A DNA stretch of 62,629 bases, filler included, from Globobulimina sp. (taxonomy: Eukaryota): NCBI GenBank assembly GCA_003354225.1. It is 36 parts of 36 records of this genome, joined end to end, with 100 filler letters (N's around TTAATTAATTAA, not from the genome) between each part and the next. Parts side by side here need not be neighbours in the genome. Positions count along the whole stretch, not along the records: positions 38,344 to 39,985 come from PIVH01013732.1; 35 more parts are not named here. The stretch is one strand, 5' to 3'. Both the position numbers and the translations under genes were made by a program. Of the stretch, positions 3,798 to 60,888 are shown one piece after another. The notes beneath the pieces were generated by a model, which was not told the origin of the DNA, did not search any database, and saw nothing but the letters and a program-made list of their open reading frames with translations. The first letter of the stretch is position 1. The number at the start of each line of letters is the position of its first letter.

Positions 3798-5129
3798 TCA
3801 GTTTAAATATGGTTTAATTGGTTGAATAGTAATATTTTTCGCATTGAATAAATACTTAATAATTGTCGACCATTTATGCTTTGTTTGGTGATGTTTCCTG
3901 TCATATTTTGCAATAATTATACTTTGCAAACAAATGCGATATTTTTCAATCAAATCCAATTTCTTTGTTTCATTCTGTTCCAATTGTAATTGCTTGCTTT
4001 GTCTTAATAATATTTGTGTTTCCAAACATTTTGAATCCAATTTTTGTAATATTTCAAACTTAAAAATCGATTCATTGTTAATTATTATCTTTGAGCCATA
4101 AACATGTTCCAAAATGGTGCTTAATTCCAATAACAATCTGTCATTCAGCAACTGCGCAATCAATGAATCCGCAAACATCTCTCGCATCAAATCGCCCTCT
4201 TCATTCTTGCTGTTATTCTGATTGTGATTTAGTTCCATAATTTTTAGCAATGAAACCGCATCAAAACAAATATGAATCAAAGCAATGGCATCTGGCGGCA
4301 ATGGCAAATTATTATTCTTATTCTCATCATTTTCATTATGCGTATTCTGGCCAAATAATAATAAGTGTCTCTTTGCTCTGTCATTCAGATTTTGAAAGAT
4401 CTTTTTCTTTTTTTTTGAGATATTTACTAAATTATCAATCTGCAAATGTTTGGAGTTGGAGTTGGAGGCAGAGCCGGAGCCAAATATCAGGTCTCTGAAA
4501 GCGTGGGAGCCCAAACTTTGTATCAATTTGGACCACGTCGCCAAGCGATTGCTATAAATGAAGGGCGACACATAAATGTTTGTATGAATGTCTTTGATCC
4601 AGCCATTGAATGAGGTGTCGAAGCATAGGCCGCCAATACGAATACGATCAAAATAGCGCTGATTTAACAAATTGTTGTTTCCATCTCCGATCACACTCAA
4701 AATATCGATATCTGCCTTTTTTTCGTCACTCTCACAAAATGTAAAAGATTTCAATGTTTCACTGTGTTGTTTCTGGAAATAATCCAAAAATTCCCTTTTG
4801 TGTTGCTGTGTGTCTTTGAGTTTCGAATCATTTGCAGTTTTAAAAAAGTAATCTCTTAATTTCTTGGCATCTTTCAAGTTTAAGTCGATTTTAATAGGAA
4901 AGAGGTTGATTTCTAAATGTTTATATCGCGTGATATTGTGAGATATTTTGTGGTTCTGTCCAAAGATTAGTTTGTTATTATTTATTGTATGCGGTTTGCC
5001 ATTATCTGCACGAATGGTTAACATTATTCGCCGTGATCTCTGTTTAAAATTCGAGTCAAATCGTCGCCATTCTTCAGGCTGCGGCTCAATCATTGTGCTG
5101 CTCACATATTCGCCTTCCAATTCGCATTC
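3798..5129 (-). CDS. BLTP2/FMP27/Hobbit/SABRE-family bulk lipid transfer protein, C-terminal (Apt1-like) part, 5'-truncated
   Basis: YKHLEINLFPIKIDL..LRDYFF and YFDRIRIG..SF.G..PFIYSNRLATWSKL resemble the family's C-terminal blocks. Confidence 0.65.
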   Translation of the reverse strand, partial: ECELEGEYVSSTMIEPQPEEWRRFDSNFKQRSRRIMLTIRADNGKPHTINNNKLIFGQNHKISHNITRYKHLEINLFPIKIDLNLKDAKKLRDYFFKTANDSKLKDTQQHKREFLDYFQKQHSETLKSFTFCESDEKKADIDILSVIGDGNNNLLNQRYFDRIRIGGLCFDTSFNGWIKDIHTNIYVSPFIYSNRLATWSKLIQSLGSHAFRDLIFGSGSASNSNSKHLQIDNLVNISKKKKKIFQNLNDRAKRHLLLFGQNTHNENDENKNNNLPLPPDAIALIHICFDAVSLLKIMELNHNQNNSKNEEGDLMREMFADSLIAQLLNDRLLLELSTILEHVYGSKIIINNESIFKFEILQKLDSKCLETQILLRQSKQLQLEQNETKKLDLIEKYRICLQSIIIAKYDRKHHQTKHKWSTIIKYLFNAKNITIQPIKPYLN

Positions 5130-10458: not shown

Positions 10459-12101
10459 GTTTCGTATTTTTCCGTGTCAAGGGGAACCTTTTTAATAAGT
10501 CCTGCTACCTTGTCATTTACACTTGCCTTTATCTTCATATAAGTACCATCTCTCAACTGGACGTTTATTTCGACTAATAATACTTCAATTTTTTCCAATT
10601 TTTTATGTGCAAAGCCGAGGACGGAAATGGTTTCTTTACCGTATGGTTTTAATCCTAATTTGTCGCTGAATTTTTTCGTAACAAACACCCTTTGACTACC
10701 GGTGTCCATTAATACGCGACATTTTTCGTTTTTACTAAATTTGTCTTTCCTTGCGTTTACATATGCAGTCGACAAAAACACGGTGCCTTTATTTTCTTGT
10801 TCTGTGACATACAATACTCCTGAGTTTTCAATTGTTTTAATCTCTGTATCAATTTTGTTGTCAATGTAACCTTTCAATTCGGTTACAATATCGCTTTTAT
10901 CGTGTGTTAATAATGGGTTCATGTTCTCGTGAGGCATTCTACCTTTCGAATCTATACTTGGGAATTGTTTGTAACATATGCTTCCATGATGTGTATCCCT
11001 TTTGCAATAGAAACATACGACACTGTTTGGACACTTGCTTATCATATGTCCATCTCCCAAACAACGAAAACATTTATCCTCTTTTTGTAACTTTTGTCTA
11101 CGACTATCAGCGTCTGTGTATTTTTGACATTTATCCGAAAAATGATTTTCATTGCAATAAACACACTGACTTCCTTCATGTATATATAGACATTCGACTG
11201 TTTTTGTATTTCTTTTGTTAAAAATTGGCCAACTGTTACTATTGCCGGTTTTATATGGTCGATTATTCGATTCATTTCCATTTTGTTTTGGTGTATTATC
11301 ATTTGACCATCTATTTTGTAATGCTCTGTTTTGATCAATCTGTGGACTTGCGTAGGTTCGAGCAACAAAAGATGGTTTGCTATTCATATTTAAGACCTTT
11401 GATATTTCTCTCCTTTTTACCTCTTTTCCGATTTCTTGCAGTATGAATCCTATACGATCTGTTTTGTCTAACATTTTATTGTACAATTTGATCTTCATAG
11501 CTGTAGGCAATTTAGACAAAATGATTTCTACATAGAGAGGACCTTCTATTGGGACTCCTAGAGTGTCGAGACAACGCAAATGGTTTTCAAGTTCGTTATG
11601 CAATTGTTCTAATTGATCTAATTTTTCATCTACTTGAGGCAGACTTAGGAATCTTTGAGTGTGCGAAGAGATAGTTATGTTTTTGTCACCATACTTATCC
11701 TTCAAACGAGCGATAGCATGACCATAGTTATCTTCAGTCAATTGCATGCCATCCAACATATGTAAAGCTGGGCCTCGCAAATAACTTTTCAAATAACTAA
11801 ATTTTTCGACTGCGCTCAAATTCTCATTTTTATCTATTGTTACGTCGTATCTATCCCAAAATTCTTGCCAACGTAACATATTTCCTGTAAATGGCTCGAG
11901 AGATATCGTAGGTAACTTGACTGTTTTTCTGTCATTTTTACTTTGACTACTTTCCGATATTTTGTCAAGATGTGTCTCAAACACCTTTACTTGTTCTTGA
12001 TTTACTGTTGTTACATGATTGTACATAAGTTGTAATTGTTTTTCAGATGCAAGTCGTGCCTTTTCACTATCATCACGCTGATTTTGTATCTGTTCCCTTT
12101 G
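10459..12101 (-). mobile_element. BEL/Pao LTR retrotransposon gag-protease region (whole contig is one open frame)
   Basis: DUF1759-type KLPTISLEPFTG...WQEFWD..LSAVEKFSYLKSYL; three Zn knuckles (CVYC..H....C, CFRC..GH....C, CFYC...HH..IC); protease RVLMDTGSQRVFVT. Confidence 0.92.
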
Positions 12102-14129: not shown

Positions 14130-15587
14130 CTACCAACGAGCATACGTGAACTTCTTATATTTATTTGGATACCTATTTTTATACAATTTATTTTGATGTT
14201 TGCGCAAGTTTTTTTTATATTTTCTTTTCATTTGACTCTTGTATTTAGGATTACTATTCACTTCATTCAACATATATTTCCCTATATCATTCACTGATTT
14301 TACATTCAATGCATTCATTATCTGTTTATATTTATACATTTTACCAGTATTCCCAATACATGATATTCCAAATTGCATCAAAGCAATAAATGCTTCGCCA
14401 AAATCTTTATCATCATTTTGAATGAATGTAATAATATCATGTACGCATTCTTGATCAATATAATCTTTATAAAAACATACAAGTTCATCAAAACCCAGGT
14501 ATTCATATTCATATTCATCAATAAGTTCATCTTTTAAATTTATATATGTCTCAATCCAATCTACCCACACCATTGCAACATGATTATCATTATCCAGTAT
14601 GTCAACACCATTTGGTTTAATTAATAACATCGCATTTACTTTAATCTCATCCTCGAGCTCATTGCCATTGCAATGTATTTCAATTCCTTTGTATAAATTA
14701 TTTAAATCATATAATTTTGATGGATTATTTAATGGCCAAATTGCAGATAATTGAGGTTCAAACAATTGATAATATTTAAACATCTCAAATAATTCAATAT
14801 ATGCCGCAGAATTTATTCTTTTTTTATCCTCAATTTCAATATTTATTGCTATGCAAACACTCTTTGTATTCTTCACAAAATAAACAGTTCCGACATCATT
14901 AAATAAAACATATTTACATTGCTTTATAATAGTTTTATCTCTTTGTCGTTTTTGTTGATAAAAATCTCTCAACCTCGATGTCAATAAACTTGTCTTTGTC
15001 TTTGATTTGTTGCCTTTTTTGCCAGCTATGCCCAGATCAAAAGTATCATAACCATTTGGGATTTGAGCAACAATATTCTTATCAAATTGTAATGAATGAT
15101 ATAATAATGGCTTCTCATAATTGTTCATCCAAAAATATCCACAATGTAATAATAAATAGACATCAAATATTAAGGACAATAAATTGGTTGAAATATCTAT
15201 ATTATATTTAAAATAAACAGTTGTCCAAAATATTGATTTAATGACCTGCTCATTGTCCATTATATCCGTAATTATAAATTGTTTTTTATTCAAACGCGAT
15301 GGTCCTTTGATAATATTTATTTTCATTGAATAGCTATTTTTATTCCTATTCAATGATGTTGATATTTTCAATAATATTTCTCTGCTAATTTGTAAATTTT
15401 TGCATGATGAGATGATGGATATATTTCCAATATAATTTGATTCATTTGTATCACTATGCTGCTGATTTCCATCCAGTTGCTTCAAACGAGAGGTATCTAC
15501 ATTGAAATGTGAATGTTTTATCTGGAATTTAATAATGACTGTGATGTTATTTATGAAATCATGCATGATATGCATTGACAATATAAA
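14130..15587 (-). CDS. Hypothetical protein (>480 aa, intronless, basic C-terminus)
   Basis: Long uninterrupted ORF in very AT-rich DNA. No motif recognised. Confidence 0.6.
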   Translation of the reverse strand, partial: FILSMHIMHDFINNITVIIKFQIKHSHFNVDTSRLKQLDGNQQHSDTNESNYIGNISIISSCKNLQISREILLKISTSLNRNKNSYSMKINIIKGPSRLNKKQFIITDIMDNEQVIKSIFWTTVYFKYNIDISTNLLSLIFDVYLLLHCGYFWMNNYEKPLLYHSLQFDKNIVAQIPNGYDTFDLGIAGKKGNKSKTKTSLLTSRLRDFYQQKRQRDKTIIKQCKYVLFNDVGTVYFVKNTKSVCIAINIEIEDKKRINSAAYIELFEMFKYYQLFEPQLSAIWPLNNPSKLYDLNNLYKGIEIHCNGNELEDEIKVNAMLLIKPNGVDILDNDNHVAMVWVDWIETYINLKDELIDEYEYEYLGFDELVCFYKDYIDQECVHDIITFIQNDDKDFGEAFIALMQFGISCIGNTGKMYKYKQIMNALNVKSVNDIGKYMLNEVNSNPKYKSQMKRKYKKNLRKHQNKLYKNRYPNKYKKFTYARW

Positions 15588-22659: not shown

Positions 22660-24302
22660 CATCTTCATTTTCATTTTAATATCATTATCATTATCAAAAC
22701 AGTGTTGCTGTTGTTGCTGTAATGTCGATTTAAATTCTTCCTTTCCTCGATTTATCCATTTCTTATGGTCCTGATTGTCGACTTTATAGCAGCAGCCTCG
22801 AATATGTGCGTCGTGGATCAATGCCTTCCATATTTTATTTGCCTTCAAAGTCATGGAATTGCCCACCACCAAACAGCACAATCTCGCTCTGGTCAACGCC
22901 ACATTCAATCTCCTTAAATCTGTCAAAAAGCCTAAATTCGCCTTTTCTATATTTGTGGCGGCGACGCGTTGCGAGCGCACACACGAAAAGATAATGATAT
23001 CCTTTTCCTGCCCTTGGAAGGACTCCACGGTATCCACCACCACAGAATGCAGCAATTTATTCGAATGATTTAGCAAATGCTTCCGGAATAAGCCAACTTG
23101 GCCGCGGTACGGAGTGACAATGCCGACATTGCCAGTCCATCGCGCTTTGTTTTTCGCGTAGAATTTGTAGCTCATATAATCCAATAATCGTAATATGAAA
23201 TCCAACTCGGCTCTGTTTGTATAGGTTTTGCTGTTTTTCACAAATTCTTCCTGATGGTGGTATACATCGAAAAAAGCATATGGCCCCAATCGCGGATCCA
23301 AAGCGTGCGCCGCCACCAACGGCACCACGTCCTTTGTGATATTGGCCCCATCTTTCAACTGACTGTCATAGAAAGTGACGTTGGGCCAATGTCGAATTTG
23401 CGGATGCATTCGATATTGCACTTGCAACAAATACGGCTGCACTCCCTCACGGATGCAGCGCTCGAAAAAAGAGGTGGAATATCCGAATAAGTTGCAGCAG
23501 GAAGAGATGACTGTGGCCGCCAACTGCTTCTCGTCGCCGACCAACACAATCGAGCCGATATTGAGCTGGAAAGGAATAAGCGTCGAGATCTCGCAAGCTT
23601 GCGTTGACTCGTCGATGATCAACAAATCGAAGTGGATTTTATGCAGAAATGTGGTCGCCGCCGCGGATAACGTACTAAATATTATATCCTGTTCGCAGAC
23701 AATTGCCAATCTATCCGGTTTGCGACGATTAGTATTCAATTGCTTTTCGTTTTGGATTAAATCGTCAATTTTACGTTTCTGCAGCTGAATATTTCGAATT
23801 TTCTCTGCCAAATCTTCCTGGCACTTCTTGTCCGTTTCGCTCATTCCTGTTGACATAAAAATGTATATATCAACACAAGAAAATATATATATTTACAAAT
23901 ACCGGTCTCTCTCTTCAATTTCACCCATTGTGATGTTTGCTGCTTCTGTTCTTTTTCGATTTTCTTGAGTTCATCCTGCAATTTTCGCAATTTACTTTTT
24001 GGGTTTGATAGCTTATCAATATGTATTTTCTCAGCAATGCTCCCGGTCCGCGTACCCGATCCAATGCGCACCATACCAATGTTTCTATTGATTTCGCCAT
24101 TTTGATGCCTCATTTTGTCAAAGGCTCTCGACACAATCTCATCGATGGCAGCGTTGGAAGGAGCACAGCACAAAATCTTCGGTCGTTGCTGCTGCCGCAA
24201 ATAGCCATGTCGCAGCAAGGCAGCATTCATCAATGCGACAATTGTGGTTGTTTTGCCAGTGACGGGCGGCCCTTTTATTAAACTAATATTATTTGCACGC
24301 GT
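22660..24302 (-). CDS. Sen1/senataxin-like (Upf1-family SF1) helicase core, truncated (intron 23847..23902)
   Basis: KGPPVTGKT, CAPSNAAIDE, IIDESTQ, LVGDEKQL, QYRMHP, DTVESFQGQEKD, RLNVALTRAR. Confidence 0.9.
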
Positions 24303-27888: not shown

Positions 27889-29531
27889 TATCAATATAAA
27901 TAAAATCATGGGCATTATCGCAATTAAATAATTTTCTTTTGGTATTAATATCTTTTGAAAAACGTTCGCTTTCATCTCTTCGCGATCTTTTAAAATGAAT
28001 ACAATCCGTTGATGTTTTTTGTTCGCATTGCAAAGTATCCGTTGGTTTGTGGCCAACAATATGTTCAATGTCATTCAGCAATTTTACCGGGCCATAGCCA
28101 GGTAATGACACCAAGAATCTTCTCATATCGAAAGGATACTTTCTATTTCTTGTTAACTAAATAAAATATATATGTACAAAGATAAATGTATACGTAAATC
28201 AGACAAAAACACAAATGACATAACTTTTGAAGTTAACTGTTCAAAATAATGAACAATAAAATTGGCGCGTTTCATTGCTGGGCATTGTAGTGATAATTGT
28301 TTGTATGTTGTACAATTAGTGCCTGTTTGCTGTGTATTGTTCAATTTTGTCAAATCAAACTCATTAATTTGCTTAAATAATTTCCCCAACGGCCCCGGCA
28401 ATTTACGATGATTGCAATATGCGGCTAAATTCTTTTTTAATTCCTTCTTTTTCAAACCAATGAATTTTTCACCAGAAATATTGTGCTGTTTAAAATAAGA
28501 TATTATCTCATTTTTATATTTAGTAATCAATGGCTGTTTGATCTCATTAAAAATATGTTTATCCAATAAATATGACAACTGTTCGGTTGAAAGTTGGAAA
28601 ATTTGGCATTTATCAACTAAACATTGCACATTTTTGTCAAATCCATTCGTTGTCTCTTGATTTGTGGCCAATATTTGCAATTTTGATTCGAATTCATCTT
28701 TCATTACGGCACTATTTGGAGATTTTGAGCTGGTGCTTATTAACAGAGCGTGATCTTTAATAAATCTATGATTGCAGCACACGACGCACACATTTAATTT
28801 ATTATATTCTCGCCATAAGCCCGCAACCATTAATTTTATATTTTTATATCCACATTCTTGGCAATTCCATGATTTTACATCGTTGTGGTCCGTATCTAAT
28901 TGCATTGTGATGGGAATATCTTCCATTGTATCGCTTGATTTTGGTGATATCGATAACGTGCTGCAGCTGTCACGATTAACAAATACTAATTTACCATTAA
29001 TATCATAGTATTTTTCTAACTTAGGGAACAATCTCAATAAATTGGCAAAGTTAACCACATCGGTTTGATCATCGTCTGTCACTGAATTAGTAAGAAATTG
29101 CCTCATTTCTTTGCTCATAAATTGTGACTCAGAGGAATACGTTTCCAGTGATATTAATCTTTTGTGTATGCACCAACGACCAAATATGATTGAAATATAT
29201 TGAGGCAACTCTGCAAATGGTTCAATTCCAATACGATCCAATATCAATTTCAATGCTAACTGTCGTGTTTCAGGCAAATACAAGGTATTATTTAATGTGT
29301 TGTAATAAGTAATATCATAAATTGTTTGCGTGAATATCTTTTCTAAATATAATATGGCATAATTATACATTGTAAAGTCTTGTGTTCCAACTTTGATTGA
29401 ATATATTTGCAATTTAGATGCTCCCATAAATAGCCTGTATATAAAACAAAATAAAATCTGAAAAAAAAAGGGGAAAAATGCATACCATTCGTTATTATCA
29501 TAGCCGGACCATTGAGATGTCGACACACATT
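27889..29531 (-). CDS. Multidomain protein: ART-like C-terminal motif, zinc ribbon, SAM-like segment, helical module (introns 29435..29485 and 28157..28224), truncated
   Basis: After splicing: SQWSGYDNNEWLFMG..LQIYSI; WNCQECGYKN..CVVC; IISYFKQHNISGEKF; CPAMKR..F..HY...LLNDIEHIVGH. Confidence 0.6.
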
Positions 29532-36601: not shown

Positions 36602-38243
36602 TTAATCTTCTTAATTCTTTTCGTAGTTTCGGTATACAAGTTTTGTGCGGGCAATATCAAGGTGGCATCGCCGGAATGGACGCCGGCATTCTCTACATGT
36701 TCAGAGATGGCATAATTTAATAACTTCCCGGCATGCGCGACCCCATCAAACTCAATCTCTTTGGCGCCAACCACAAATTTCGAGATCACCACCGGATGCG
36801 ATGGGGACACTAACGTTGCGGCGGCCAAATACGTCTCTAATTGTCGCGCGTTGTAAGAGACATTCATAGCAGCTCCAGACAAGACATACGACGGCCGAAT
36901 CAAAACTGGATAGTTCACTTTCGACGCAAACAAAGAAGCTTCCTCAATATTAACTGCCTCGCACCATAGCGGTTGATCGATATGCAACTCATCCAACAAT
37001 TTGCTAAATCGATGTCGATTTTCGGCACAGTCAATATTCTCCGGTTGCGTGCCTAATATTTTACAGCCCGCTTTGTACAAAGGAATGGCTAAGTTATTGG
37101 AGATTTGTCCACCGACAGACACAATGATGCCGCGACAACCACTGCCTTCCAACTCATATATATCCAACACGCGTTCATACGAAAGCTCTTCGAAATACAT
37201 CCGGTCGCATTCATCGTAATCAGTGGACACGGTTTCCGGGTTATAATTGATCACAATCGAGCTCCATTCTTTCTTCTTCTTCAATTTCTTATGATAATGT
37301 TTCTTGTGCTTCCGCTTATAGCTATAACTGCCGTTGATTGAATACGTGTTGCTCTCCGACTTCATGTCAGCGTCTCCGGTTTCGTTCAATTGCCGGATAG
37401 TACGCACTGCGGACACTGCGCACCAATCAAACTCGCACGAGCTCCCAATGCGATAGGCACCGCAACCTAACACGATCACGCCCTTCTCATTGAACACCAA
37501 ATCGTGCTCCGATCCGTTATAAGTGACATATAAATAATTGGTAAACGCAGGGAACTCCGCAGCCAATGTATCGATTTGCTTCACCCACGGCCGAATTGCA
37601 TATTTGTCAATTCTCATTCTACGCACTTCATTTTCAGTCGATTTCAACACGCGCGCAATCTGACGATCACTGAAGCCGTATTTCTTGCATTTGAGCACTA
37701 TGTTTTTCGGTATATTTTGCACAGAATACTTATTCGCGACCATTAACTTTTCAGTCACGATGATATTACGCAACTTGCACAAAAACCAGGGATCAATGGC
37801 GGTCAACGCATGGATTTTGTCCACGCTGTAACCGCGTTGGAAAGCGCAGGCAATGGCAAATATGCGGATATCTGACGGTGAGCTCAACTCTTTGTCTAAT
37901 TCCTGATTGGATAGCCGTTGGATTTCGTTGCTGACAAAACCAAAGCCATCGCATTCGCCATTCACCATTCGGAGAGCTTTGCTCATCGCAGCTTCGAATT
38001 TACGGTCAATGGCCATCACTTCGCCCACAGACTTCATAGCGCTGCCAATGCGACACGACATGAACGAGGTATTGAACTTCTTCATGTCCCATTTGGGTAT
38101 TTTCACCACAATGTAATCCAACGACGGCTCAAAACAGGCCTGCGTAGCTTTGGTGATACTGTTTTTGATGCTGGGCAAGGTCTTATTCAATGACAACTTG
38201 GCAGCGACGTAGGCCAAGGGATAGCCCGTGGCTTTGGAGGCCA
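36602..38243 (-). CDS. Carbamoyl-phosphate synthase large-subunit domain (eukaryotic CAD/CPS type), internal fragment
   Basis: ACFEPSLDYIVVKIPKWD, IGSAMKSVGEVMAI, KQIDTLAAEFPA, GAYRIGSSCEFDWCAV, NYNPETVSTDYD, HVENAGVHSGDATL. Confidence 0.97.
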
Positions 38244-38343: not shown

Positions 38344-39534
38344 TATTTTTATAATAAATTCCAACATTTAAAACCAAATATTGATACATTTAAACATGTT
38401 TTATATGCCTCAAGCAATGGGACTGCATTTTATTTTGGTCAACAAATTCATGAAAATATCAAACATGACATGGATATAATGAGAAACACGTCGATTCAAA
38501 TAAATCTAATACATTTATACGGGAAATGCGGGAAACTGGATATTTGTGCGGAAATATTTGATGATATAAAACATAATGAAATAGATAAATATGAGACAGA
38601 TATTTGTATTTGGAACGCGATGATCCAGGCCCATGCAAGGAATGGTGAATTAAATGCTGTGTTGAGTTTATATTATGATGGAATTAAACAGATAGAAACG
38701 TTAAATGCAGATTGCAAAACATTTACTTTTATAATAAATGGATGCAGTCATTATGGAGACATAAACAGTGCAATAAATGTATGGCGCAATGAGATGGTAT
38801 TTGGGAAATATGATATTTATTTAGTTTCGAGTTTGGTTGATTGCTTATCACGAAAAGGTCAATTAAAAAGTGCTTATGATTTTATTAAAGAGTTTGAGGT
38901 AAATAACAATTATCCAATACAAGTTATGTATAATTCATTGATGAGTGGATGTAAGAAATATAATAATAAACTGATGGCAGAAGAGATATATTACGAAAAC
39001 AAATTAAAATTTGGAGACTATATACCAGCCACAGTTTCATTATCAAATATATATGGAATGGACTATGAATATGATAAAGTGAATAAAATTCGCGATGAGT
39101 TGAAGTTAAAAGGAATTAATAAAATTCCAGGTTTCTCTCAAATGGAAATATTTGGAGAAATTCATCAATTTTATGCAGGCGATACAAGTTATTCCAATGA
39201 TATTGATGTCAAATTAAAAGAGGTCGCGCATGAATTGAAATTATGTTATGGTTATGTGCCTGATTTGAAATGTGTAACGAGACAATTAAATCAAAGTGAA
39301 ACTGCGGAAAATGTGCTATTAACACACAGTGAGAAATTAGCATTGATTTATGGATTATTAAAGACACCAAATGATTATGATTTATTTATTAATAAAAACC
39401 TAAGGATATGTAATGACTGTCACAATTTTATAAAATTATTCACTAAACTCGAGAAACGACAAATAATAGTTGGCGATGCAAATCGTGTCCATAAATTCTA
39501 TGACGGCAACTGCTCATGCAATGACTACTATTGA
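38344..39534 (+). CDS. PLS-class PPR protein with E1-E2 and DYW cytidine deaminase domain, 5'-truncated
   Basis: L (PNIDTFKHVL..GQQIH), S (LIHLYGKCG), P2 (IWNAMIQAHARNG), L2 (TF..IINGCSHYG), S2 (LVDCLSRKG), E1, E2 (LSNIY), PG box (KIPGFSQMEI), HSEKLA, KNLRICNDCH, HKFYDGNCSCNDYY-stop. Confidence 0.95.
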   Translation, partial: YFYNKFQHLKPNIDTFKHVLYASSNGTAFYFGQQIHENIKHDMDIMRNTSIQINLIHLYGKCGKLDICAEIFDDIKHNEIDKYETDICIWNAMIQAHARNGELNAVLSLYYDGIKQIETLNADCKTFTFIINGCSHYGDINSAINVWRNEMVFGKYDIYLVSSLVDCLSRKGQLKSAYDFIKEFEVNNNYPIQVMYNSLMSGCKKYNNKLMAEEIYYENKLKFGDYIPATVSLSNIYGMDYEYDKVNKIRDELKLKGINKIPGFSQMEIFGEIHQFYAGDTSYSNDIDVKLKEVAHELKLCYGYVPDLKCVTRQLNQSETAENVLLTHSEKLALIYGLLKTPNDYDLFINKNLRICNDCHNFIKLFTKLEKRQIIVGDANRVHKFYDGNCSCNDYY

Positions 39535-39613
39535 TGTCTATTTTATGAATAATTAATTTAATACTTTTTCAGTATTACCGGGGTTATCTCTCAAAACTTA
39601 TCGTAAAGTTAAA

Positions 39614-39985
39614 ATGGGAGAGCCAGCTTGCCCGGGTAGTTGCTTCCTTGATACAGACAAAGTAAAACTGTTAAAAAACGGAAAAGAATGTATTGTCCCC
39701 GCAGCTGATATACAGGTCGGAGATTTAATAAAAACAGTATATAATGGTTATCAGCAAGTATATTATATTTGCCTTCCAAAACATAATTTATCATCACCAA
39801 TAATAAAATTAAATTTCAAATCATGTTTCTCAAACAATAAAATGTTAACTGGATCAATTGGATTAACCCCATTTCATTTACTTTATGATCAAGCAGGAAA
39901 ATTAAAACAAGCAAAAGATGTCGAAATCGATGATATTATTCAGACCTCATATGGAGCGGCAGTTGTAACGCAAATTAGCTTCGAA
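39614..39985 (+). CDS. Hint (Hedgehog/intein-type) autoprocessing domain protein, 3'-truncated
   Basis: Block A SCF....V, DIQVGDLI, block B LTPFHLL (TxxH), KQAKDVEIDDII. Confidence 0.8.
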
Positions 39986-41328
39986 NNNNNNNNNNNNNNN
40001 NNNNNNNNNNNNNNNNNNNNNNNNNNNNNTTAATTAATTAANNNNNNNNNNNNNNNNNNNNNNNNNNNNNNNNNNNNNNNNNNNNGGGGCCAAACACGCT
40101 CTGCTTCGAGCTCACTACCACCAGAAGGTGCCGCAGCGCAATGACCTTTAAACCGTAAGAACGGAGCCAGTATGGCATGCGGATGAGTTGCCACGTTGAG
40201 AAGCGATAATAAGCAACAACAAGACCGACGATCACTGGCCCAAAGCAACCATAGGACGAAGGACGGGCGTGCTTCAAATAGGCAATTACAATGCCATCGA
40301 TGAAGGCGCACTTTCAACCTAGTTATTGGAGCATGCAGATTACAGCAGAGGCCCATCGATGCATTCATGAATAAAATCTAATAAAAAACTTAACGAAATC
40401 CATCTAAAAAGTGGTGGGAATGTGCGGATGCGCCGAACTAATAAACCTAATATGTCGAACATGGATGGTAGGAATGGAAAGCATGGTGGCAGAGGCTCAA
40501 AACAGGAGGACCTATGTGTTGAACACGATGGTGGCGGCATTTTGTTTGGCATTAATGCCTACTCCGCTGGAACGCGATGCCCAGTCGCCGAGGATATATA
40601 TGCCTCACGGACGGAGGTTACTGCATTAATGAGGTTTTTATGCCTCACCTTCTAGCCCCCCGAACCGTGGATTTTTCGCCCAAGCAACTTGAGTGAAACT
40701 CAGAGGTTGCTCCCAATCAACACAATTATAGGCCTGGATAGTGATGGAAATGGACGGATTTGCGGTAGGAATGGTGCGACCACGGCGATTGTGGTAATTT
40801 CGGCCATGGCGATCATCGCGGTATGACCACGTCGATTGTGGCATTATTTTCGACGATTCGACGATTTAGCATCATCGACGATCATCGCGGATTTAATCTG
40901 AATAAATTAATTAATTTGTCTATAAAAAATATATATAAAAATTAAATATGTAAAAAAATATAACAAAAAAAAAGTATATAAAAAAAAAACAAAAAAAAGA
41001 AATTTCTTAACAACTCAATTTGTGGCAATCTCGATATTTGATGCGTTCCCGGCATTTGGTGGCGATTTAATGGCTGCGGACGTCGATACGAATTAATTAA
41101 TTATATCTGTATATATTATATATTATAAATTATAGACAAACAAACAGAAAAAGAAAGAGAAAGAAAAAGAGAAAGATATTTAAAAAAAATTAACTTTTTT
41201 TTTCTTGAATCTATAATTTGATTATTCATCAAATTAATTGATTAATTAATGAATATATGATTGATTTCACCCAAACCAGGCATTTAATGGGAACCTGGAT
41301 GGGTTTTTTCTCAATCAATAGGACACGG

Positions 41329-41442
41329 ACTCATTATCACTCATTCTGCGGTGGCAAATCGCAGAAATTACAAATCTCATTTTCGCAGAAATTACACAAC
41401 TCATTATCACTCATTCTGCGGTGGCAAATCGCAGAAATTACA
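41329..41442. repeat. 44-bp direct repeat (period 70) within a degenerate CTCATT-rich array extending to about 41710
   Basis: ACTCATTATCACTCATTCTGCGGTGGCAAATCGCAGAAATTACA at 41329..41372 and 41399..41442. Confidence 0.85.
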
Positions 41443-41827
41443 CAACTTATTTTCACTCATTTCGCGGCGGGCATTACAAAACTCATTATTCAACCCATTC
41501 CGCGACAATTAGGACAAAATATTTACTACGACGTTTGGCGCGATCTCAATCAACATCGCGATGAACGTAAACCAATCCGTAAGGACATAATTCAACTCAT
41601 TCTCAAACTGCGAATATGCGTGGCAAATCTCATTATTTTGCCTAATTTCCAATTTCTTCTCTCAATCAACCCAATCATTGCGACGACGAATTCAAATCAA
41701 CTCATTTCGGACACGATACGTAATGGTNNNNNNNNNNNNNNNNNNNNNNNNNNNNNNNNNNNNNNNNNNNNTTAATTAATTAANNNNNNNNNNNNNNNNN
41801 NNNNNNNNNNNNNNNNNNNNNNNNNNN

Positions 41828-54021: not shown

Positions 54022-55400
54022 TTTGAAAGTATAATCACAAAAAGAATTATCCTTCTTCGGCCCCGGCGCGTTCTTGGTCTGTTTCTGCATATCCTGCTCC
54101 GCCTGAATATTCTCAAAATTGCTCGTATCAATCTCGCTCGTTAACTTGGGCACAAAGGGCGGCCGCATCGACAACAAGTTATGCCACGGTATCTGCTTAA
54201 AATAGGAATGCGACTTAATTTGCCCAAAGGAATAGCGCCTCCGATACGAACAGACCAAATTATGGATCAAATCCGCACATTCCTTGCTCAACTTGGCGTC
54301 GTACGGTATCTTAAAATATTTCCTATAATGCACAATCTTCCTGCAAGTTTGCAGCGGGTCCTCGGCATAAAAGGGCGGATAACCCACCAAGCACTCGAAC
54401 ATAATCACGCCCATCGACCACCAATCCACCATCTTATCATAGCCTTTCTGCGAAAACACTTCCGGTGCGATGTAATCCGGAGTGCCCACCGTGGAATACA
54501 TCAACTTGCGGTCGCGATGATACTTTTTCTTCTTCTTACTGCTCACAGTGTCGTTCACCACGGGCTCGTCCTTGATCTGCTCCTTCATGGTCTGATACTT
54601 GCTGATAACTTGGTCGTTTTCGGTGTTGAACGACTTGGCGAGTCCGAAATCGCTCAATTTTATATGTCCATCGTTGGCGATTAAGATATTATCGGGCTTA
54701 ACATATGTATTTGTTGTATGACAGCAATGTAAGTAATACAGATCAATGTAAGCAATACCTTCAAGTCTCGGTGCACGAAATCCAACTCATGCACCGCGTT
54801 GATAGCGGCCGCCAACTCGCACACATAAAATTTGGTTTGGTTCTCGCTCAAAATGTCTTCCCGCATCAAGATGGTCATCAAGTCGCCGCCGCCGCAATAC
54901 TCCATCACCAAATATAAATAGATGTCGTCCTGGAAAGAGAAGTGGAGCTTGACTAAGAAGCCAGAGACGCGCGACGCGTTGGCCATTAAATCGCGCTCAG
55001 CCTTGACGTGCGCCACCTGGTTCTTGGCGATCATGTCCTTTTTGCGCATCGTCTTCATGGCATACACCACATTGTCGCCCATACAGCGCACAATGCGCAC
55101 TTCGCCGAAAGCGCCTTTGCCGATAACTTTGATCAATTCGAAATCCTTTAAGCCTAATTTTTTGCGCGAATCGCGTAAGAGCTTCTTCTCTTCTTTGTAA
55201 TATTTGTTCATCATCTCGTTCTTTTTGGAGTCGTCTAAGTTGGCGTTTTGCTTTAATTTATGTTGCATTTGTAAGGTGCGGAGACGTCGTTGCGTCACAT
55301 CGCGCATACGGCCTTGGATGGTGCCTTCCACCTTCTTCTTCATCGCCTGCACCTTTTCCAATGTCTCTTTGGACGGTTTGGCTTTGGTATGCGATGCCAT
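54022..55400 (-). CDS. NDR/LATS (STK38/Cbk1-type) AGC kinase, 3'-truncated (intron 54697..54758)
   Basis: N-terminal regulatory segment; IGKGAFGEVR, NQVAHVKAERD, HRDLK|PDNIL, SDFGL, YSTVGTPDYIAPE, DTSNF. Confidence 0.95.
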
Positions 55401-56609
55401 GTTTTTGCTGTGTATTTATGTGATGTGCTTTAATGGTTGGTTTGTTCTGAGCAACACAACGTTAACATGCTTTTCGGTATTGATAATTGTTGGATTTTTG
55501 AGGTGTGAAGTAAAAAAAAACTTTAACTGAAAACATTGTCATATTCTAGAGTCACTGTTCCCGCCAAGTGTGTCTTAGGACTAATAATCATGGAAACAAA
55601 ACTATTTTTATTATTAATAATATATAATATTTATTAAGTTTATTAAGGTTATTAAGTTTATTANNNNNNNNNNNNNNNNNNNNNNNNNNNNNNNNNNNNN
55701 NNNNNNNTTAATTAATTAANNNNNNNNNNNNNNNNNNNNNNNNNNNNNNNNNNNNNNNNNNNNTTTTTCCAAAGTACATTCTACGCTCAATCGAGCATCA
55801 CCAAAATCAGAATGATACGAATTACAACTTCCAAAATCTGTACAGTCACTAAATTCCGATACTTTATCATCAGATTCAGAGGTATTGCAATATTGAATAG
55901 CAAATGTAGTCATCACAATAAATGCTAAAGAATAATTCATTTGTATTTGTTATACTTGCTTGTAAGGAATTTGTTTAGTTTAAAGTTGTGCGATTGTGCG
56001 AACTCTAGAGTTTTTGATTTTAGCTCATTTAATGATGAAAATCTTAATATCAGGGTTCTCACCTCATAGACGATAGCAAGGATAGATTTTTCCTGATTCT
56101 AGCATATGAAACACCCTTACCAGTCTTAAAAGGATTTGATCATTATTTTGGTCCATATAATGGAACTATATCCTATTAATAATATAACAGCAAAATTAAA
56201 ATTGTAGCAAATAAATGTGATGGCTGTAATTTCGATCAAAACAAGTTTAGATTGAATTTGGAAATTTTGGTTAATTGACTTAATTCGATTCGATTACAAT
56301 TTAAAGTTTTCAAAATTCCGATAGGTTTCTGTTTTGATGTACATCCCTGAGGTAACTATAGCTAATCGTATCAACAAACGATGTATTATCTATCCGCTGA
56401 AACAAACGACGTATTATGCACTTATTCCATTTGTGTAAATATGATCGCATCGATGTTGTTAAGTGGCTTTTCTCATCACGTTTTATTAAACGGTGTATTC
56501 TGGATCTGTTTGATATTGAAGAAAGGGGTGAATAATATATATATATACTTTATTCGAGACTGTGCGATAGTAGTCTTAAGGAGTTGATCTAACTATCTGA
56601 TTTACAATG

Positions 56610-59247: not shown

Positions 59248-60695
59248 GAAAAAAACCGAACATAATAATTTCTGTTCGTGTTGTCCCTGTGGTAAAAACG
59301 CACATTCTGCGCGGTTAACATTTGGCATTTTGTGTGATGACAGTAAGTGCATCAACGCAAATGCAATGAATCCGAAATTTAATAAACAATTTCCATATAA
59401 GTTCTTATTTCAAAGTAAGCGTTTGTTTGAGCAGATATATCGTAATAAATTTATACGTTTATTTGATTCGAGTGCAAGGAAACAAGGCGCCCAACTTAAG
59501 TTAGCTGAAATCCATACGTATGATTTGAGTGTGTTTGAATACCCAAAGTACGAAATTGACACTATGTTAACTGCACAATTTGCATTACCGTCCACCTCAC
59601 CCAATGATATCAGCTCTAACTCTGCGGAGTTAATGCGTTTACACAATAAGGAATCGCGCAAGATTCAGAAACATATTCAACAGCAGGAAGCAGTGGAAAA
59701 TTACTTCATGCGTTCCTTTGATAGCAGGAACTTGGCGGAATTTGGGGAGACTATACTTGAGGAAGATTATGGTGTGATGCTCGAAACGCGCGTTGTGAAC
59801 TGCTTAAATAAGGTGTTGTCCATAATAAATCCGCCTGTGGTTTACAGCAAAGCATCAAATTCAAATTCAAATGGAATGGAGATGCAATCCATGGATAGGA
59901 ATACCAGTAATACATCGGATGCGGAGGCAAACAGAAAAAGAGGACATTCCGTATGTTGTGGACATTGTTATGTGTCATTTGGTATGGTGGTGTTTGCCAT
60001 TATTATGGCTGTCATCGTCGGTATTGGTGGATTAAACATTTGGTTGATTGGTAATGCGCCAATGCAAGCCACTATTGAGCACATATTAGGATTCTCACAG
60101 AAAATGATTGCCGCCGAGGCGCAGTATGTGGCACAAAGGGCGGTATTCTCCACGCAGCAATTCATTGATTTTTCCAATGTATTGCCAGATGTTACGCAAT
60201 CGATGGATAACCAACAAGTATTTGATTCTTTTTTGGATAATAACTTAATTGCATCGCCTCGATTCGATGGCATTATACAAATTGCACATAATAACACAAA
60301 CAGTGTTACAACCTCAACTTTTATCTTTAACAAAGAGGAAAATGAGCTACATCATTATGATTGTAATTTAAATCTAGCTGTGGATGATACAGATAATGCA
60401 CAAAATTGTATGGCTGATTTATATACAATGTCCAGTAAGATATGGGACGATCGGGACAATGGCTTGTTATCCAGTCATACCAATAGTTATTTCATTGCTA
60501 ATTCCATCATCAATGCGGATATGACGGGTGGATCCATATGGTTTGTTACCTGGCGATATATCAATTCGACCAACTTTATTATTGGCGCGATATTTGACAG
60601 TCAGCGCATCAACGAAGAATATGCCACTTTGACCTTTGCGAAAGAAGGCATTGTATATTGGCTCACAACCGATGAATATACGCATGTATGTCACT
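59248..60695 (+). CDS. Membrane signalling-type protein (cytosolic region, TM, extracellular sensor-like region), cut by a foreign junction
   Basis: Long ORF with one strong TM (FGMVVFAIIMAVIVGIGGLNIW). Family assignment is tentative. Confidence 0.5.
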
Positions 60696-60888
60696 ATCGA
60701 ACTGCGGTTACTTGCCCACATGAGTGAAGACCCAAAGTTGCTTGCAGCTTTCCAAAACCAGGAAGACATTCATGCTTCTACGGCGGCCTCTGTTTTTGAG
60801 GTCCCTCTAGATCAAGTCACTAAAGAGATGCGCGCCCAAGCAAAAGCTGTGAACTTCGGAATCCTTTACGGGCAGCAGGCCTTCGGCC
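60696..60888 (+). CDS. polA: Bacterial DNA polymerase I fragment (motif A end to motif B), Chlamydiae-like
   Basis: IELRLLAHMSED..L..AF...EDIH..TA..VF..P...VT..MR..AKAVNFGILYGQQAFG. GC is clearly higher than upstream. Confidence 0.92.

Follow-up and report, generated by a model that had tools for sequence, protein, structure and literature searches.

A PPR-DYW gene fragment of a foraminifer-linked clade in a Globobulimina assembly and its predicted role in mitochondrial C-to-U editing

The gene considered here lies in a 62,629-nucleotide (nt) stretch of DNA (the window) from Globobulimina sp. (assembly GCA_003354225.1), and the closest described system is that of the land-plant pentatricopeptide repeat (PPR) proteins of the PLS class that end in a DYW cytidine deaminase domain. 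With these plant proteins (7o4e/7o4f, 7w86 and 9kfx in the Protein Data Bank, PDB) it has in common the motif order, the PG/HxE/CxxCH/CxC signature and the fold. Outside plants, PPR-DYW genes have been found in more and more protists, rotifers and fungi, and wherever this has been examined their presence predicted mitochondrial editing of cytidine to uridine (C-to-U). Heterolobosean, amoebozoan and malawimonad families (Naegleria, Acrasis, Physarum, Soliformovum, Gefionella) are reported to comprise lineage-specific PPR-DYW expansions, with mitochondrial C-to-U editing where examined (PMC4758236; bioRxiv 10.64898/2026.09.04.749523); PMC4758236 cites the finding of such editing in Naegleria and Physarum, and describes the Physarum arrays as mostly of LS type, unlike the plant-like P2-L2-S2 arrangement of the window protein. 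Within Rhizaria, the supergroup of the putative host, the precedent is set by the paradinids (Ascetosporea), for which PPR-DYW genes and demonstrated mitochondrial C-to-U and adenosine-to-inosine (A-to-I) editing are reported (PMC11946409). According to that paper, C-to-U editing in rhizarians had gone unreported before 2025, and the paradinid DYW proteins have a deletion and a clade in common with fungal ones. A 2026 census, made by BLASTP against NCBI NR, gives 31 DYW domains in Rhizaria (PMC13386178).

The initial annotation, made from the DNA sequence alone, knew of no description in foraminifera or Rhizaria; in view of these two reports this is too broad for Rhizaria. For Foraminifera it holds in the literature searched: no report of PPR-DYW proteins or C-to-U editing was found for Foraminifera, Reticulomyxa, Retaria or Nonionella, part of this being judged from search listings, and the 31 rhizarian domains of PMC13386178 may include foraminiferan ones. 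Foraminifera are a large group of ecological and geological importance, whose mitochondrial genomes have been sequenced only recently and are described as highly divergent. We consider that the window probably contains a nuclear gene fragment of an AT-rich protist, which encodes a PLS-class PPR-E1-E2-DYW protein of a foraminifer-linked clade with a presumed part in mitochondrial C-to-U editing. The broader proposition, that Foraminifera carry their own expanded, Y-terminated PPR-DYW family and hence plant-type site-specific mitochondrial C-to-U editing, seems to us to stand at about even chances.

The gene fragment, its motifs and its predicted fold

The window is made up of about 36 unrelated contigs of 1641-1643 bp each, which are arranged by length; each join consists of 44 N, TTAATTAATTAA and another 44 N. 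Because the contigs are separate pieces, neighbouring 'genes' across a spacer are unlinked, and only positions 38344-39985, the gene's own contig (1642 bp, G+C fraction [GC] 0.30), are physically linked to the DYW gene. On this contig a reading frame is open from the first base (38344) to a TGA at 39532-39534 and encodes 396 amino acids (aa). The Pfam profile DYW_deaminase (PF14432) matches residues 303-396 over its whole length (all 93 profile positions, 1-93; E 1.8e-31; 108 bits, the cut-off being 24), PPR (PF01535) matches four stretches (E 4.9e-16), and E_motif is found at residues 232-267 (E 5.9e-6) with 26.9 bits, slightly under its gathering score of 27.3. Among PDB sequences, the synthetic PLS-type PPR-DYW protein 9kfx gives a colinear match over residues 8-396 (E 1.2e-78), and the last 134 residues match the DYW domain of OTP86 (7o4e, over residues 263-395, E 1.2e-31) and DYW1 (7w86, E 1.4e-29). 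These Pfam and PDB E-values exclude chance resemblance. The motif boundaries given below were taken from the alignment to 9kfx, and the motif names follow the published PLS nomenclature.

38344..39534, plus strand: 3' part of a PLS-class PPR-E1-E2-DYW gene, 396 codons and stop (open reading frame [ORF], Pfam, PDB matches, model); 5' end cut by the contig end
38344..38379, plus strand: tail of a P1-type PPR motif, residues 1-12, ending KPN (9kfx alignment)
38380..38487, plus strand: L1 motif, residues 13-48 (9kfx alignment)
38488..38601, plus strand: S1 motif, residues 49-86, with a 7-residue insertion; position 5 is I, last is D (9kfx alignment)
38602..38712, plus strand: P2 motif, residues 87-123; position 5 is N, last is D (9kfx alignment)
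38713..38814, plus strand: L2 motif, residues 124-157 (9kfx alignment)
38815..38919, plus strand: S2 motif, residues 158-189, plus a 3-residue insertion, 190-192; position 5 is S, last is N (9kfx alignment)
38920..39123, plus strand: E1 and E2 motifs, residues 193-260 (Pfam E_motif, 9kfx alignment; helical in the model)
39124..39531, plus strand: DYW cytidine deaminase domain, residues 261-396 (PF14432; 7o4e, 7w86 and 9kfx alignments)
39127-39132, plus strand: PG, residues 262-263, in KIPGFSQMEI (translation)
39325-39333, plus strand: HSE, residues 328-330 (translation; 7o4e, 7w86 and 9kfx alignments)
39409-39423, plus strand: CNDCH, residues 356-360 (translation; 7o4e, 7w86 and 9kfx alignments)
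39511-39519, plus strand: CSC, residues 390-392 (translation, alignments)
39523-39531, plus strand: terminal DYY, residues 394-396 (translation)

The contig thus holds the last five repeats of the PPR array. The order L-S-P2-L2-S2-E1-E2-DYW, which the initial annotation had proposed, is confirmed by the alignment to 9kfx, and the residues that it had singled out (the PG/HSE signature of the C-to-U type, CxxCH, CSC, the DYY tail and SYS at the site of the plant SHP) were all found in the translation and the alignments. The residues of the second zinc site (H360, H383, C390 and C392), candidate ligands by comparison with what is reported for the OTP86 structure, are present and are invariant in the clade described below. 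A KP-type replacement of the PG box, together with an altered catalytic region, defines the variant DYW:KP, whose members are candidate U-to-C factors; the window protein has PG and a canonical HSE and so falls outside this variant. DYW:KP proteins are reported from hornworts, lycophytes and ferns (PMC13386178).

The P2 sequence IWNAMI is conserved in the clade consensus. In the PPR code each motif reads one base, with S2 opposite position -4 of the target. By this code the N and D of P2 would predict U at -6, a prediction of the initial annotation that agrees with the published code, and the S and N of S2 would predict A at -4. In S1 the combination of I and D is non-canonical, so that no base can be predicted for it; with only three code-bearing motifs on the contig (S1, P2 and S2), one of them non-canonical, there are too few for a target to be predicted.

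An AlphaFold2 model of the fragment, computed with a 10-row alignment of the clade as input, is confident, with a mean predicted local distance difference test (pLDDT) score of 90.9 and a predicted template modelling (pTM) score of 0.89, and shows helix pairs in the PPR region and helical E1 and E2 motifs. The best Foldseek match of this model is the RNA-bound 9kfx_A (E 6.2e-22, template modelling score on the query [TMq] 0.86, root-mean-square deviation 2.9 A, 397 columns), followed by the OTP86 DYW domain 7o4e_B, with a score of 0.86 on the target (TMt).

Relatives of the gene and the signature of its clade

A word-indexed protein search gave 51 proteins at E<=1e-3 from 1109 candidates, and an exhaustive phmmer search gave 9261 at the same threshold (1015 of them at E<=1e-30), the best 150 of which were listed. 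Twenty-five matched proteins were looked up by name. Foraminifer labels are carried by 8 of the 25 (five Nonionella stella and three Bolivina argentea, from EukProt); two others are from Soliformovum irregulare (Amoebozoa), Adineta ricciae, Carica papaya and Coffea arabica account for one each, and the remaining 12 are unnamed ENA, JGI or MERC records. A further Nonionella stella member (P0203) was found through a cluster. The top match is a Nonionella protein in both searches: P0003 (42% identity) in the word-indexed one and P0056 (E 1.8e-110) in phmmer. The ten best phmmer rows comprise five with foraminifer labels, two that are unnamed but belong to the same clade, and three, ending in EYW or DYW, that fall in the plant-like part of the trees. 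Over the fragment the Nonionella rows are 38-46% identical to the window protein and Bolivina P0004 is 44% identical, while in the word-indexed search the values are 29-34% for land-plant proteins and 27-35% for Rotaria; identity to plant proteins is 30-33% over the whole fragment and about 40% in the DYW domain. The highest identity is that of two ENA proteins, P0005 and P0006 (49% over the fragment, 55% over 174 DYW-region columns).

For the trees, 202 proteins (P0001, the window protein, to P0203, without P0002) were reduced to the 185 that had at least 175 aa and an HxE 66-74 residues from the C-terminus, and the last 175 residues were used. Among the 17 rows dropped were all three Bolivina proteins, whose C-terminus is cut. 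With all 185 rows, FastTree places the window protein, all six Nonionella proteins and seven unnamed rows in a 14-row group (SH-like support 89), with the long-branch row P0050 outside. IQ-TREE (LG+C20+F+G4 with posterior mean site frequencies, PMSF) on 64 rows including P0050 gives an 11-row clade with support of 97/72, the bootstraps being unsettled. A 46-row set without P0050, also analysed by IQ-TREE, consisted of all 11 non-redundant clade rows, five rotifers, two Soliformovum, 13 named plants and 15 unnamed proteins, again over the last 175 residues. In this set the clade (the window protein, five Nonionella and five unnamed marine or ENA rows) reaches 100/99, the rotifers form a group of their own (100/98), and the clade together with the rotifers is separated from the plant-like rest at 99/97. 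The window protein is the first branch within the clade (90/66), and none of the foraminiferan proteins is orthologous to it. Soliformovum, the sole representative of the protist families in these trees, lies in the plant-like part.

Judged by these trees, which are unrooted and were sampled from the window protein's own best matches, the gene does not belong with the sequences of plants, rotifers or Soliformovum; a direction of transfer is not given by them. The non-plant origin for which the initial annotation had argued is thus borne out by the position of the gene outside the plant-like group. On the same comparison, the gene is part of a separate clade, in which every member with a name is a foraminiferan transcriptome protein: Nonionella stella P0003, P0056, P0058, P0059/P0203 and P0063 lie in the same supported clade and carry the clade-specific residues, and the truncated Bolivina argentea proteins P0004, P0099 and P0126 are among the best matches. 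The bdelloid rotifers (Rotaria, Adineta) are sister to the foraminifer-type clade in this sample, a relation that may not survive wider sampling.

The clade has a signature of its own. Its PG box contains SE or SQ, in place of the SW or TW of plants and rotifers; its rows lack SHP, which the rotifers keep, and have the motifs VINKNLRIC and ANRVHxF in common. The last residue is Y in ten of the 11 clade rows (DYY, EYY, NYY, EFY, DRY, DNY, DCY), and the rotifers have a different non-W aromatic end, DYF. A terminal Y also occurs outside the clade: 17 of the 185 rows end in Y, of which three lie elsewhere (one from Coffea) and another is P0050. In the same 185 complete relatives the terminal tripeptide is DYW in 107, the others ending in DFW, DYF, GYW, DYY (as the window protein does) and the like. 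The ENA protein P0057 closely resembles Bolivina P0004 in the signature region. Compared with land-plant PPR-DYW proteins, the window protein therefore stands in a separate clade, with PG-F-SQME where the plants have PG-C-SWIE, no SHP and a terminal Y instead of W; its S1, P2 and S2 motifs carry insertions, and its coding sequence is AT-rich, with a GC at third codon positions (GC3) of 0.25.

These departures bear on whether the protein is an active enzyme. The host gene might be real and its product no active C-to-U deaminase, that is, a relic, a non-catalytic RNA binder or stabiliser, or a pseudogene broken at its 5' end. Only the 3' part of the gene is visible, the protein has PGFSQME for the plant PGCSWIE, SYS for SHP and a DYY tail, and no transcript evidence was found in public runs. 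However, the 396 codons contain no stop, and the window protein keeps the residue at 38 of 38 columns that are invariant in the 10-row clade alignment; these include H328, S329, E330, C356, C359, H360, C390 and C392. Since the deviations in the PG box, SHP site and tail are common to the whole clade, expressed Nonionella transcripts included, they point to a conserved variant and not to decay, and we regard an inactive product as improbable.

Full-length members of the clade are 693-1223 aa in size and combine a long PPR array with E motifs and a DYW domain. Eight begin with M and are longer than 690 aa; in five of these, the first 40 residues are basic and poor in acids, which by this crude count hints at mitochondrial presequences. 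Within the clade a species has several paralogues, with long and differing PLS arrays; the number of Nonionella and Bolivina paralogues suggests a small family whose members would each be responsible for a different site or set of sites, an arrangement known from plants, Naegleria and Physarum.

Host assignment, predicted editing and its alternatives

The gene agrees in composition with most of the window. Its relative synonymous codon usage (RSCU) correlates at 0.72 with that of 21 pooled ORFs from other contigs, whose own correlations are 0.24-0.80, and its GC of 0.30 lies within the 0.29-0.46 of the contigs, as the initial annotation had noted in calling the DNA as AT-rich as the host contigs; composition by itself is weak evidence. 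The public run that holds the contig best, which may be the assembly's own source, contains all of it in four pieces, with 8 differences and a word depth of about 4x. No 5' extension was found, as the contigs of this run begin at the same base, 38344. A run of another study, under a second organism label, contains 513 nt of the DYW gene with four differences (two of them synonymous), an identity of about 99%.

The contig could instead derive from a contaminant or an associated eukaryote, such as plant debris, a moss, a rotifer, an amoeba, prey or a parasite. It is only 1.6 kb long and of low depth even in the run that holds it best, the neighbouring ORF has no identifiable relatives, and the window contigs vary enough (GC as above, GC3 0.24-0.60) that more than one genome could be present. 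Against this, the gene falls outside both the plant-like group and the rotifer clade, with the Soliformovum rows in the plant-like part; its GC and codon use are those of most window contigs; and its nearest named relatives come from two foraminiferan transcriptomes. Environmental sequences offer no better source: a scan of JGI metagenomes with the clade alignment confirmed 583 relatives, and the 80 that were kept, all at 30-34% identity, include no close relative and no useful gene context. A contaminant origin is accordingly given little weight here.

If the gene belongs to the host, its function is most likely the site-specific C-to-U editing of mitochondrial transcripts, as may be deduced from work on plants and from the protists in which DYW genes and C-to-U editing coincide. 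In such a mechanism, the protein would be imported into the mitochondrion, where the PPR array would bind a specific RNA 5' of the target cytidine, one motif per base, with S2 at -4 and P2 at -6. The zinc-dependent DYW domain (HSE...CxxCH) would then deaminate the target C to U, and paralogues would serve different sites.

An active deaminase might also have another target or mode: it could edit transcripts of a kleptoplast, act at many sites with partner factors, or accept adenosine as well. Nonionella stella keeps stolen diatom plastids, so that kleptoplast editing would be possible in principle in this species. Kleptoplasty, however, is not known to be a common denominator of the clade, members of which are also found in Bolivina and in this genome. 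As to the mode, the single PPR-DYW protein of diplonemids, Diplonema PPRD1, is reported to support the deamination of C and A at multiple sites (bioRxiv 10.64898/2026.09.04.749523), and in paradinid mitochondria A-to-I editing is reported beside C-to-U editing (PMC11946409). On the other hand, the clade shows the pattern of site-specific factors, in that a species has several paralogues whose PLS arrays are long and differ from one another, and in the published protist cases consulted the substrate is described as mitochondrial (PMC11946409, PMC4758236, bioRxiv 10.64898/2026.09.04.749523). A different target or mode therefore appears unlikely, and site-specific mitochondrial C-to-U editing is the reading that we prefer.

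Several points weigh against it. As to the host, the assignment to a foraminifer would follow from one observation, that the nearest named relatives of the gene are foraminiferan transcripts. The transcriptomes with foraminifer labels are reported to come from field-collected cells, so that an associate common to them could be the source. The assembly is itself heterogeneous in composition, which speaks against a firm host assignment, and an ORF for a Not3 N-terminal domain on another contig (26266-27297) does not place the host, its best match being an ENA protein (57% identity), followed at about 40% by fishes, oomycetes and others. In the trees, the high support of the clade depends on the removal of P0050, as the values with and without this row show. 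As to the protein, the N-terminus with its targeting signal and most of the PPR array lie beyond the contig end, and the plant enzymes differ from it in the PG box, at the SHP site and in the last residue. As to expression, no RNA run is listed for the DYW gene, and two runs presumed to be RNA match only 39639-39983, within the downstream ORF, and one 34-nt piece. Finally, a paper on retarian mitochondrial genomes has, in the text consulted, no report of substitution editing (PMC10127745); all that it mentions is a cox1 frameshift, conserved in Miliolida, for which repair after transcription might be required.

Organellar C-to-U editing in foraminifera is thus a concrete and testable prediction, the editing itself being deduced from the gene. 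If it is correct, the system would be one unreported for Retaria, and foraminiferan mitochondrial proteins and cytochrome oxidase subunit I (COI) barcodes inferred from DNA would be partly wrong; mitochondrial annotation and COI barcoding of the group should then be based on edited sequences. A grouping of the clade with bdelloid rotifers and not with plants would suggest that its genes spread by some other route than directly from land plants, and the foraminifer-type clade is a data point on whether DYW proteins outside plants reflect horizontal transfer or ancient origin. Its signature (SE or SQ in the PG box, terminal Y) provides naturally occurring variants with which structure and function of the DYW deaminase can be related.

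The downstream ORF and the other contigs of the window

Two further features follow the gene on its contig.

39535..39613, plus strand: AT-rich spacer, 79 nt (sequence)
39614..39985, plus strand: neighbouring ORF, 124 codons up to the contig end, which cuts off its 3' end; perhaps a Hint-like module, separate from the editing factor (ORF)

The initial annotation had placed a Hint gene 80 nt downstream of the DYW gene. There is indeed an ORF, which starts after the 79-nt spacer, but its identity as Hint is weakly supported: neither Hint nor any other Pfam family matches it at E<=1, and what favours the assignment is a language-model feature lead to Hint/PT-HINT clusters (score 0.91). The argument that such a neighbour speaks against plant contamination is likewise weak. 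A sequence search found no homologue among longer proteins, the only PDB match, a lectin (E 1.3), is at chance level, and a single-sequence model has a pLDDT of 35 and is unusable. In run X4 the ORF lies on a 602-nt contig at a word depth of 111, compared with 3-6 for the DYW gene, and the match of this contig ends at 39615, one base past the first base of the start codon. The ORF is also found at about 97% identity in runs of three organism labels. These observations suggest that the ORF belongs to a gene family, multi-copy or highly represented, of which only the coding part is conserved.

On the other contigs of the window are genes for nuclear proteins of an ordinary eukaryotic kind (Not3, a kinesin tail, carbamoyl-phosphate synthase, a UPF1-like helicase, kinases and a Ras-family GTPase), as well as Arm, RING, SAM and MLLE domains and a retroelement gag and protease. 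Over the whole window, Rfam at gathering thresholds and ARAGORN gave no match; tblastn with the DYW gene and the downstream ORF found no second copy of either in the window, and none of five complete window ORFs has an exact match in the protein collection searched.

Three contigs are richer in GC than the rest (0.43-0.46, against 0.29-0.40 elsewhere): 22660-24302, 36602-38243 and 54022-55663. They code for conserved proteins, namely the UPF1-like helicase, carbamoyl-phosphate synthase and a protein kinase; their ORFs have a GC3 of 0.53-0.60, against 0.24-0.48 in the others, and a low RSCU correlation with the pool (0.30-0.53), which could reflect either a codon bias tied to expression or the presence of a second organism in the assembly. 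For the helicase (AAA_11/AAA_12) and for one of the kinases, the coding sequence is broken into two ORFs; these lie in different frames, with an overlap of about 50-100 nt (23844-23892 and 54684-54786), and this could result from a short intron or an assembly frameshift.

At 10461-12101 lies a retroelement-like ORF of 547 aa, open at both contig ends, with a gag-like DUF1759 (E 6.4e-32) and an aspartyl protease (E 3.3e-5). The peptide HYHSFCGGKSQKL occurs in two ORFs of different frames at 41257-41775, which implies a direct DNA repeat of about 100 nt on that contig. Many contigs contain open frames of 440-490 aa that match no Pfam family (E<=1e-3 or 1e-4), for example at 3801-5129, 14133-15587, 28156-29529 and 59249-60724; they apparently encode proteins restricted to one lineage, that of a poorly sampled eukaryote.

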